Below, one piece after another: positions 1-13,381 of a stretch of 26,903 nt of DNA. A program made the position numbers and the translations under genes. The stretch lies in IMG/VR virus record IMGVR_UViG_2917413769_000006, positions 1 through 26,903 of that record. One strand, given 5' to 3'. Within the stretch, counting starts at the first letter, position 1, and the number at the start of each line of letters is the position of its first letter. Below the pieces are notes generated by a model. That model saw only the letters and a list, made by a program, of their open reading frames with translations, did not search any database and had not been told where the DNA came from. This stretch comes from a virus. Lineage: Duplodnaviria; Heunggongvirae; Uroviricota; Caudoviricetes.

Positions 1-273
1 ATGAAAAACAGAGAATCCAATGTCAGCAGCCTGCAAGAATTAGCCGATTTTAACGTCAGCTATTCCCTGCTCACAAACGAAGTCTATCTGTCTGCATCAT
101 TCATCGATAACATGGCCTGCATACCACATTGGCCAGTAAAGGAATTCCCAGATCAGTTTATGTGTGATCAGTTTATGTGTATCTCACGAACTCGCGCAAA
201 AGAACTGATAAATGAGTTACAGAAGGCAATCAACTACATGGATGCAGGTATTGATAACTCCCATGGTAGGTGA
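1..273 (+). CDS. hypothetical protein; 3' end interrupted by IS insertion (stop codon supplied by the IS terminus)
   Basis: 90-codon ORF from the first base of the window; its stop TGA (271-273) is the first 3 nt of the IS left end. Contains a perfect in-frame 15-bp tandem duplication (151-165 = 166-180, DQFMC twice). No recognisable family. Confidence 0.4.
   Translation: MKNRESNVSSLQELADFNVSYSLLTNEVYLSASFIDNMACIPHWPVKEFPDQFMCDQFMCISRTRAKELINELQKAINYMDAGIDNSHGR
151..180 (+). repeat. perfect 15-bp tandem duplication gatcagtttatgtgt x2
   Basis: Direct reading: 151-165 and 166-180 are identical; in frame within ORF 1-273; each copy carries a GATC site. Confidence 0.95.
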
Positions 274-1627: not shown

Positions 1628-1999
1628 CTAGCTTTCAACGTCACACATAGCGACAGGAAATTTTTTGTACAGCGTAGATATTCCAACATCGTAGATAATT
1701 GAAACCTGCTTTTGCTCCATTCCATTTTTTATCAATCGTCCCATTTGCGCCCATTCTTCACTACTAAACTTTGGGCGCCTTCCACCAATACGCCCTTCAG
1801 CTCGTGCGGCTGCTAAACCAGCCCGGGTGCGTTCGACTATAAGCTCCCTTTCCATTTCTGCCAGTGCACCCATTACATGAAAGAAGAATCTCCCCATCGG
1901 CGTACTCGTATCGATGCTATCCGTCAGGCTCCGGAAGTTAACCCCTTTCTCCTGCAGTTCCTCCACTAACACAACAAGATGTCGCATGCTGCAACCGCA
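1628..1999 (-). pseudogene. DNA invertase (Pin/Gin/Hin-type serine recombinase), 5'-truncated: catalytic N-terminus missing
   Basis: Minus-strand ORF MRHLVVLVEELQEKGVNFRSLTDSIDTSTPMGRFFFHVMGALAEMERELIVERTRAGL... is near-identical to the C-terminal two-thirds of Pin-family invertases as I recall them; resemblance stops about 4 codons upstream of the first Met and an in-frame stop follows, so roughly 65-70 N-terminal residues including the active-site Ser are absent. Confidence 0.85.
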
Positions 2000-4425: not shown

Positions 4426-4646
4426 TGGAGGATGGAAAAATGAAATAGCTAAACGGAAATACCGTATTGGATACTATATTTTGGCAACGTGACGACAGCG
4501 TTAATCTGGTCGGGCTCTCATGGCGACGTAGTGAGGGAGAGAAAGCGTAAAGCATCACTGAGTTACGGTTGACGCCCGGTTTAACGCGTAAGTAGTCTGA
4601 TAAAGAGATAGTGCGCCGCGACCCTCACAGCGGCAACGATTAACGG

Positions 4647-11806: not shown

Positions 11807-13381
11807 GTGAAAACCTACGCTGCCGGGATCCTGTTCAAGTCTGGCGGGAAAATATTTCTGGTAAAGCGTGGGGATGATGGTTCATGGGCGGTACCGGGTG
11901 GGAAACTCGAAGAGGGCGAAACGCCGGAAGCCGCAGCAAGGCGTGAAGTGATGGAAGAATGCGGGTTTGATTATTCCAGCCCCCTGACGCCGCATACCCT
12001 GATTGATGGCTATGTTACCTATCTTGCTGATGATGTTGAGCAGTTCGACGCGGTTCTGAATGAGGAGAATCAAGCTTATGGCTGGTTTTCTCCTGCTGAA
12101 CTGCCCGATCCGCTACATCCCGGCATGGTGGCGATGCTTGATGCCGAACCACTAAATGAAATGGACGTTGCCGGGCTTATCGCTCACGGGCAACTCACAT
12201 CCCCGCAATTTTTCAGAAATATGTACCTGTGGGCGCTGCGTATCACCGGAACGGGTGTTACCTGGCGATCCAGATTCAGGCAATACGCCTACCGATCCCC
12301 TGAAAACTATCTGACGGATGAATTCCTCGCCCGGTGCTCTGGGCTGCCGGTTATCTGGTGGCACCCGGAGAAAAACACGCTCAGCAGCGAGGAATTCGCC
12401 TCAAGGACGATCGGGACCATCGCGTTTGCCTGGATAAAGGGTGATGAGGTGTGGGGAATGGCCCGCATCTATGACACCGACGCCGCTGCGAATCTTTCAA
12501 CGCGGCAACTGAGCACATCCCCCACGGTGGTGGGCGGCGATGACGTTCTGATCAACGTCGACGGTGAACCGCTGCTGCTGGAAGGAACTCCGGAATTGTT
12601 AGATCACCTTGCGATTTGTGAACAGGGCGTCTGGGACAAGCTGGGAGAACCGACGGGAGTTAAATCCGACACACTTGTAAACGAGGTCCAGAAAATGGAT
12701 GAAGAAAAATTATTAGCACTCATTAACCAGGCGCTGGACGCTCGCGAAGCCCGCGCAAAGGCTGACGCCGAGGAAAAAGCGAAAGCAGATGCAGAGGCCG
12801 CAGAAAAGGCTAAAGCCGATGAAGACGCCGCCCGCATTAAGGAAGAGGAAGAAAAAGCGAAGGCTGACGCCGAGGCAAAAGCGAAAGCTGATGCGGAGGC
12901 AGAAGAAAAGGCCAAAGCGGACGCCGAGCTGGAGAAAATCCGCGCAGACATGGAAGAAATGAAAAGCCGTGTGCCGCAGGAACTCAGCGACGAAGAGCGC
13001 AATGAGATCGCTGATACCCAGTGCAAAGCTGACAGCGTATTTGCCTCTTTCGGCGAACGCGCGCCGCAACCTATGGCGGGTGAACGTGCGCTGCCCTACC
13101 GCCGCCGCATCATGACCCGCCTGCAGAAATATTCTCCTGATTATAAAGAAGTGGATCTGCATGCCATCGCAGACAGCCAGCTCCTGAGCATCGCGGAGAA
13201 AAAAATCTATGCCGATGCGCAGGCATCAGCGGCATCCAGCCTGGAACCCGGCGCTGGGCTGCGTGAAGTCATTCGCACCGATGCCACCGGGCGCCGTATC
13301 AGCACCTTTATCGGCGATCCGTCAGCAACATGGGCGCCTTTCCAGGCTGTCAGCCGTAAAGTCGCTGGCATCAAACAGTAA
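11807..13381 (+). CDS. Nudix hydrolase domain fused to head scaffold/protease-like protein
   Basis: GTG start 5 nt after RBS ACGGAGGA. Residues about 1-110 form a Nudix fold with a complete Nudix box [24 protein letters not shown] (G-x5-E-x7-REUxEExGU). Remainder: globular middle domain, imperfect KADAEA-type coiled-coil repeats (about 12747-12930), basic C-terminus; occupies the protease/scaffold slot between the F-like gene and capsid genes. Confidence 0.75.

Follow-up and report, generated by a model that had tools for sequence, protein, structure and literature searches.

The question raised by this locus is how a perfect 15-bp tandem repeat came to lie, in frame, within a small phage gene and 105 bp from an insertion sequence (IS). 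The window, as the whole stretch of 26,903 nucleotides analysed here is called, derives from contig VATL01000016.1 of Escherichia sp. E1130 (GCA_005781065.1), starting at position 98,964, and begins just within the end of a prophage that adjoins yccA. The first gene inside this prophage end is an open reading frame (ORF) of 90 amino acids (aa) on the plus strand (1-273), in which the unit GATCAGTTTATGTGT occurs twice in succession on that strand (151-165 and 166-180). A preliminary description of this DNA had reported the repeat and drew no link between it and the adjacent IS, an element whose usual target duplication is 15-16 bp long.

The ORF product belongs to phrog_17793, a phage protein family of unknown function whose members normally comprise 87-88 aa, and it matches the family profile over residues 1-86 (E = 7.4e-43). 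No match was found among Pfam and NCBIfam families, phrog_17793 being the only family recovered; an AlphaFold2 model of the product has low confidence (mean pLDDT of 59), and a Foldseek search of this model against the PDB returned nothing below E = 0.2. In E. coli prophages the homologue is the last gene beside yccA and converges on a serine invertase gene, and in Salmonella phage SEN34 it adjoins the integrase. The E1130 ORF holds the same position as these members but differs from the family by a unique insertion of five aa and by a two-residue truncation of the C-terminus made by the IS. The inserted residues repeat DQFMC, one of the best conserved stretches of the family, which falls within a predicted beta-strand of the low-confidence model. 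The 20-mer CAGTTTATGTGTATCTCACG, located within 154-188, does not vary in its DNA sequence, not even in SEN34, where identity is only 70% overall; this may reflect codon-level constraint on QFMCISR, or a DNA-level site. The ORF had been described as IS-disrupted, and the IS does interrupt it, but the loss is limited to the last two codons (F and N) and the stop, with the first three bases of the IS providing a new TGA stop. The severed tail TTCAACTAG (TTC AAC TAG, encoding F, N and a stop) is found on the plus strand at 1623-1631 and matches the C-terminus ...HGRFN of the homologue P0003. In effect, the motif that is best conserved in this small phage protein has gained five residues, at a degraded prophage end.

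Sequence records built independently of one another indicate that the repeat is real. The NCBI contig VATL01000016.1 and the Logan contig SRR8835199_221 both carry the duplication and are identical there base for base, and the Logan assembly of run SRR8835199 agrees with the window over 5,628 bp, repeat and IS included. Logan contigs are built from 31-mers, and single 31-mers span the 30-bp repeat, so they must exist in the reads. The ORF product moreover shows 100% identity to a protein of Escherichia sp. E1130 annotated as hypothetical, which has two GenBank accessions. No evidence in favour of an assembly or sequencing artefact was found, SRR8835199 being the only known read set, and both the agreement of the two contigs and the two protein accessions speak against one; on these records, such an origin appears very unlikely.

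The repeat is composed of exactly 2.0 copies at 100% identity, 30 bp in total (151-180), and it lies in frame, doubling codons 51-55 (D51-C55), which confirms the perfect five-codon duplication reported earlier. Its periodicity stops exactly at both edges, base 150 being A against the final T of the unit and base 181 being A against its initial G, and flanking microhomology is thus zero on either side. By arithmetic, about 2.5e-5 perfect 15-bp tandem repeats are expected in 26.9 kb, and a chance origin is therefore excluded. No other perfect tandem duplication with a period of 13-20 was detected in the 624 kb of DNA analysed. GATC opens both units (151-154 and 166-169), in agreement with the Dam site noted previously in each, but the site is not conserved, since it is replaced by GACC in E. 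coli strain 44 and in phage SEN34. The hexamer AGATCA at 150-155 recurs as the final 6 bp of the IS right end (1601-1606), and the right tip of the IS itself holds a GATC site (1602-1605). This match could be a chance event (about 1%, by estimate) or a pseudo-end attracting the transposase.

The distribution of the duplication has been traced through proteins and contigs. The three closest DNA relatives align to the window with a clean 15-bp gap, and a protein search that yielded 57 homologue clusters has shown a single DQFMC, or a lesion at that place, in the 56 others. When cluster members are added, there are 144 distinct family sequences (the members lie on thousands of contigs, some of them on about 1,000 each), and two copies of DQFMC occur in one of these, that of E1130, with none having more. 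Scans for patterns of one to three copies recovered seven alleles in viral contigs, all single-copy, and nothing or only chance gapped matches in genome contigs, while among metagenome contigs no match showed the 15-bp spacing that a two-copy allele would give. Because the copies have not diverged and E1130 alone has two, the duplication is recent and derived, as the preliminary description had supposed, and the comparison of copy number across strains and assemblies that it recommended places two copies in E1130 only, in both of its assemblies. The origins put forward with that supposition have fared less well. Simple slippage of strands is argued against by the lack of microhomology at either edge, and an expandable repeat is unsupported, with no three-copy allele or further two-copy allele occurring in the proteins or in the contig scans. 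Bacterial tandem duplications of the slippage type resemble this one in being short, perfect, in frame and recent; nonetheless, they as a rule exploit microhomology of a few bases at the flanks and are frequently recurrent, and the E1130 repeat shows neither feature. A functional role has also been considered, in which the repeat would be a contingency locus of variable copy number, or a selected five-residue insertion altering the protein. The preserved frame and the two GATC sites 15 bp apart would suit such an element, but only two copies exist, no variation in copy number was found through the 144 sequences and the scans, the GATC is not conserved, and to double the family's best conserved motif, which a low-confidence model places in a beta-strand, is more likely to be damaging. 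We regard selection for the repeat as highly improbable.

The neighbouring element, located at 271-1606 on the plus strand, is 1336 bp long (TGATGTAG...CAAGATCA) and belongs to the IS2 group of the IS3 family. It contains orfA (335-685) and orfB (682-1569), whose products match the Pfam domains HTH_Tnp_1 (1.5e-18) and rve (1.3e-18, plus rve_3), and the NCBIfam model transpos_IS3 is matched with 200.6 bits against a cut-off of 160. The element resembles IS2 of E. coli in having two overlapping ORFs, an OrfA with HTH_Tnp_1 and an OrfB with an rve DDE domain, in its length of about 1.33 kb, and in that a minority of insertions of its type show the 5-bp duplication typical of IS2. Among NCBIfam models those of IS2 TnpA and TnpB fit it best, yet the scores fall under the IS2-specific cut-offs, and it is for this reason considered a different element. 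By eye, the termini also resemble those of IS2 (a GCCCCC block). The left end of IS2 is not known to carry the terminal CA-3' that is present at both tips of the E1130 element. The terminal inverted repeats of the latter are imperfect (5'-TG ... CA-3'), with the ends having been set by more than 30 copies with unrelated flanks. Its nearest relatives are about 96% identical and are common on plasmids of Klebsiella, Enterobacter and E. coli, as well as on some chromosomes. The name ISEcl1 was not adopted; papers put ISEcl1 beside IS1 on pKPN3-type Klebsiella plasmids, as is the case for one relative of this IS.

The IS is flanked by a 16-bp target-site duplication, TAACTCCCATGGTAGG, with a left copy at 255-270 and a right copy at 1607-1622 that adjoins its right end; this 16-mer is single copy in the relatives L001 and L002. 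The element is itself present as a single copy in the E1130 genome, both assemblies running through it and its exact OrfB being on record at one place only. An assembly that passes straight through the IS in a 31-mer graph, together with the single place of OrfB, fits an element that has moved rather than been copied. Partial copies of the IS have been observed elsewhere. Many E. coli chromosomes (H94-H105) carry an unannotated 78-bp solo left end, about 95% identical, and these are remnants of old copies. At 4615-4645 of locus L082, a further right-end tip of 23 bp, from a slightly different variant, comes after a complete copy, and a 5-bp repeat, GATAC, flanks the whole; this suggests insertion beside, or replacement of, an older copy.

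The target duplications of the element were surveyed at 33 distinct insertion sites in E. coli genomes, a Klebsiella plasmid, Salmonella contigs and IMG/VR prophage contigs, L037-L110 included. Flanking repeats of 15 bp are the most frequent (15 sites), followed by 5 bp (six sites) and 16 bp (five sites), and the seven remaining sites are rearranged and have no repeat or one of 1-3 bp. Duplications of 15-16 bp thus account for about 77% of the 26 intact insertions, and 5 bp is found in the rest. All three lengths arise from copies that are at least 99% identical to each other, and of two E. coli strains from pigs whose copies are annotated under one transposase protein accession, one shows a 5-bp and the other a 15-bp duplication. 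The 15- and 16-bp repeats are genuine target duplications, given that the empty sites in ydeE and nrdE are single copy among the matches listed (about 5,400 E. coli genomes) and that the 16-mer of the window is single copy in relatives. No target-site consensus is evident among the 20 long duplications. The IS3 family norm is a duplication of 3-5 bp, and that of IS2 is 5 bp, from which the 16 bp found here is a departure, though no reason to remove the element from the family. A literature search retrieved nothing on 15-16-bp duplications in the IS3 family; long duplications of this IS may already be recorded in ISfinder. The 5-bp and the 15/16-bp classes lie about one helical turn apart, which suggests that target DNA is captured in two geometries, both on the same face. 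Such a bimodal spacing bears on how the transpososome holds target DNA, and it affects the calling of IS boundaries and of duplications in annotation pipelines.

Taken together with the position of the repeat, this spectrum raises the possibility that 151-180 is a target-site duplication that has lost its element, namely the IS now at 271-1606; this is the reading that we prefer as the most economical, and we find it about as likely as not. The repeat has the properties of a target duplication in being a perfect direct repeat of a stretch that is single copy in uninserted relatives, and its length of 15 bp is the modal class of the IS (15 of the 26 intact sites). No element lies between its copies, which abut directly, the IS being found 105 bp downstream (from junction 165/166 to the IS left end); if made by the IS, the repeat can therefore only be an empty duplication. 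Zero microhomology at the edges is what is expected of staggered joining followed by fill-in, and not of slippage. Both lesions are unique to E1130, and we have roughly estimated the coincidence of an unrelated 15-16-bp duplication within about 110 bp of a single IS at 1e-3 to 1e-4, on the basis that no other duplication with a period of 13-20 occurs in the 624 kb.

We infer that the IS would first have integrated in the same gene at 165/166, with 151-165 as the ancestral unit or putative left copy, 166-180 as its exact match on the right, and the junction between them as the putative former insertion point. The transpososome would have attached the IS ends to the two target strands at points 15 (or 16) bp from each other, the stretch between them then being copied on both sides by gap repair. 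An IS at this place would give the junctions ...TTTATGTGT/TGATGTAGCC and ...CAAGATCA/GATCAGTTT or, written to other extents, ...CAGTTTATGTGT/TGATGTAGCC and ...GGTCAAGATCA/GATCAGTTTATG. The element would then have left by transposase-dependent excision, its flanks rejoining and the duplication not collapsing, and would have re-integrated 105 bp downstream (270/271), making the present 16-bp duplication. Transposase-dependent excision has been established for IS3-family elements and is the only established route by which they are lost from a donor site.

Two versions of the excision step would each yield the observed sequence exactly. In one, the duplication would be 15 bp long, the breaks would fall flush with the two IS tips, and the flanks would be joined directly, which amounts to the break-and-join picture proposed for excision assisted by the IS-excision enhancer IEE, minus its use of microhomology. 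The other would start from a 16-bp duplication and an IS2-type figure-of-eight, in which a cleaved end would attack one nucleotide outside the other end; the resealed donor strand would keep 16 + 15 nt, leaving a perfect 15-bp tandem repeat. The arithmetic of this second version follows from IS2, which joins its ends with a 1-bp spacer.

The main rival explanation is a small tandem duplication that arose independently of the IS, through template switching during replication, slippage, or the mending of a staggered break that arose by chance, and was tolerated in a decaying prophage, with its closeness to the IS and its match in length being coincidental; we judge it plausible, though its probability falls somewhat short of even. 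Small in-frame duplications are ordinary mutations, and this prophage end is degraded. Beyond the IS insertion, a serine DNA invertase/resolvase gene that converges on the ORF (1628-1987, minus strand) is reduced to a remnant of 119 aa where relatives have 188 aa, has lost the N-terminal catalytic part, and is fused to a C5-methylase fragment. Lesions also accumulate in homologues, four of which carry independent ones within about 20 bp of the duplicated codons. In Citrobacter sp. MGH109 (L097, 3150-4660) a different IS3-family element and an assembly gap start after DQF; a Salmonella homologue (L098, 380-395) has a 54-bp deletion from D51; a S. bongori homologue (L099, 3000-3175) has an inversion breakpoint near E48; and protein P0055 has a frameshift after DQL. 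The spot may be fragile or a target, or the cluster may simply reflect decay of the gene. The association of IS and repeat is a post hoc observation, and prophage genes in decay gather unrelated lesions. In addition, no solo 15/16-bp duplication was found at or flanking the other 32 IS sites, no junction with the IS at 165/166 was found in IMG/VR, and the ydeE and nrdE sites are all empty and single copy among the matches listed, with no allele that keeps a duplication. A direct repeat of 15 bp should tend to collapse to a single copy, and to our knowledge Escherichia and other enterobacteria lack classical (non-homologous) end joining. What weighs against an IS-independent event is the absence at both edges of the microhomology that slippage normally uses, the agreement in length with the modal target duplication of an IS 105 bp away, and the joint coincidence estimated above.

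A third possibility, which also invokes the IS, is that the target duplication was one of 10 bp (GTTTATGTGT) and that an internal deletion left the terminal 5 bp of the IS right end (GATCA) between its two copies. The same 30-bp sequence would result, the unit does start with GATCA within the shared AGATCA hexamer, and IS-end fragments are known to persist, as in the 23-bp tip of L082 and the 78-bp solo left ends of E. coli. However, a 10-bp duplication occurs at none of the 26 intact sites, on which ground the reading was rejected; furthermore, GATCAG is found in a single-copy relative, E. coli ST536, so that the first GATCA is ancestral, and the deletion would have needed an endpoint precisely 5 bp short of the tip in the absence of microhomology. 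We accordingly hold this remnant to be a most improbable source of the repeat. Action of the neighbouring invertase at a crossover site in the ORF was set aside as well, its gene having no catalytic N-terminus; the ORF sequence also bears no evident resemblance to the gix/hix consensus. All readings other than an empty target-site duplication and an unrelated duplication are, even when added up, improbable.

Other features of the surroundings were recorded in passing. Immediately next to the invertase remnant lies a fragment of a C5 cytosine methylase, from its C-terminus (1914-2177; region 1628-2180). In relatives, the ORF and the invertase are followed by tail-fibre genes, and in the window a lambdoid late region is found (DUF1367, YbcO, Q antiterminator and holins). 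Further along, a 524-aa ORF (11807-13381) in the phage structural region has an N-terminal NUDIX domain in unusual pairing with imperfect tandem repeats (12764-12912; periods of 30 and 24) rich in Ala, Lys and Glu.

Taken alone, the repeat amounts to minor damage in a prophage gene that is decaying. Should it be an empty target-site duplication, it would represent a footprint, or mutational signature, that has not been described for bacterial copy-out/paste-in elements. More generally, it is conceivable, though somewhat less likely than not, that an IS2-group element widespread on enterobacterial plasmids captures target DNA in two geometries one helical turn apart and can leave the long duplication behind as a clean, five-codon, in-frame insertion. 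Such elements would then write insertions of this kind into genes and move on, some duplications near mobile elements now attributed to slippage would be transposon scars, and IS3-family excision would gain a class of product absent from current models.

These suggestions can be set against the systems in which element loss has been characterized. In the IS3 family, documented excision restores the target precisely or produces deletions, and the literature search yielded no member of the family that leaves both duplication copies, nor any bacterial footprint consisting of a solo duplication. A bacterial likeness is offered by IS629/IS1203v, where IEE-enhanced excision likewise removes an IS3-family element and requires its own transposase; its products are nonetheless precise excisions, in which one 3-bp copy is kept, or flanking deletions, whereas the E1130 proposal keeps both copies. 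Elements of the IS3 family normally transpose by copying out, not by cutting out. In Ac/Ds and the P element, excision involves a double-strand break and non-homologous end joining, usually with a few bases added or lost. It is with these elements that the proposal for E1130 shares its outcome, a target-site duplication that stays as a small tandem repeat after the element has left.
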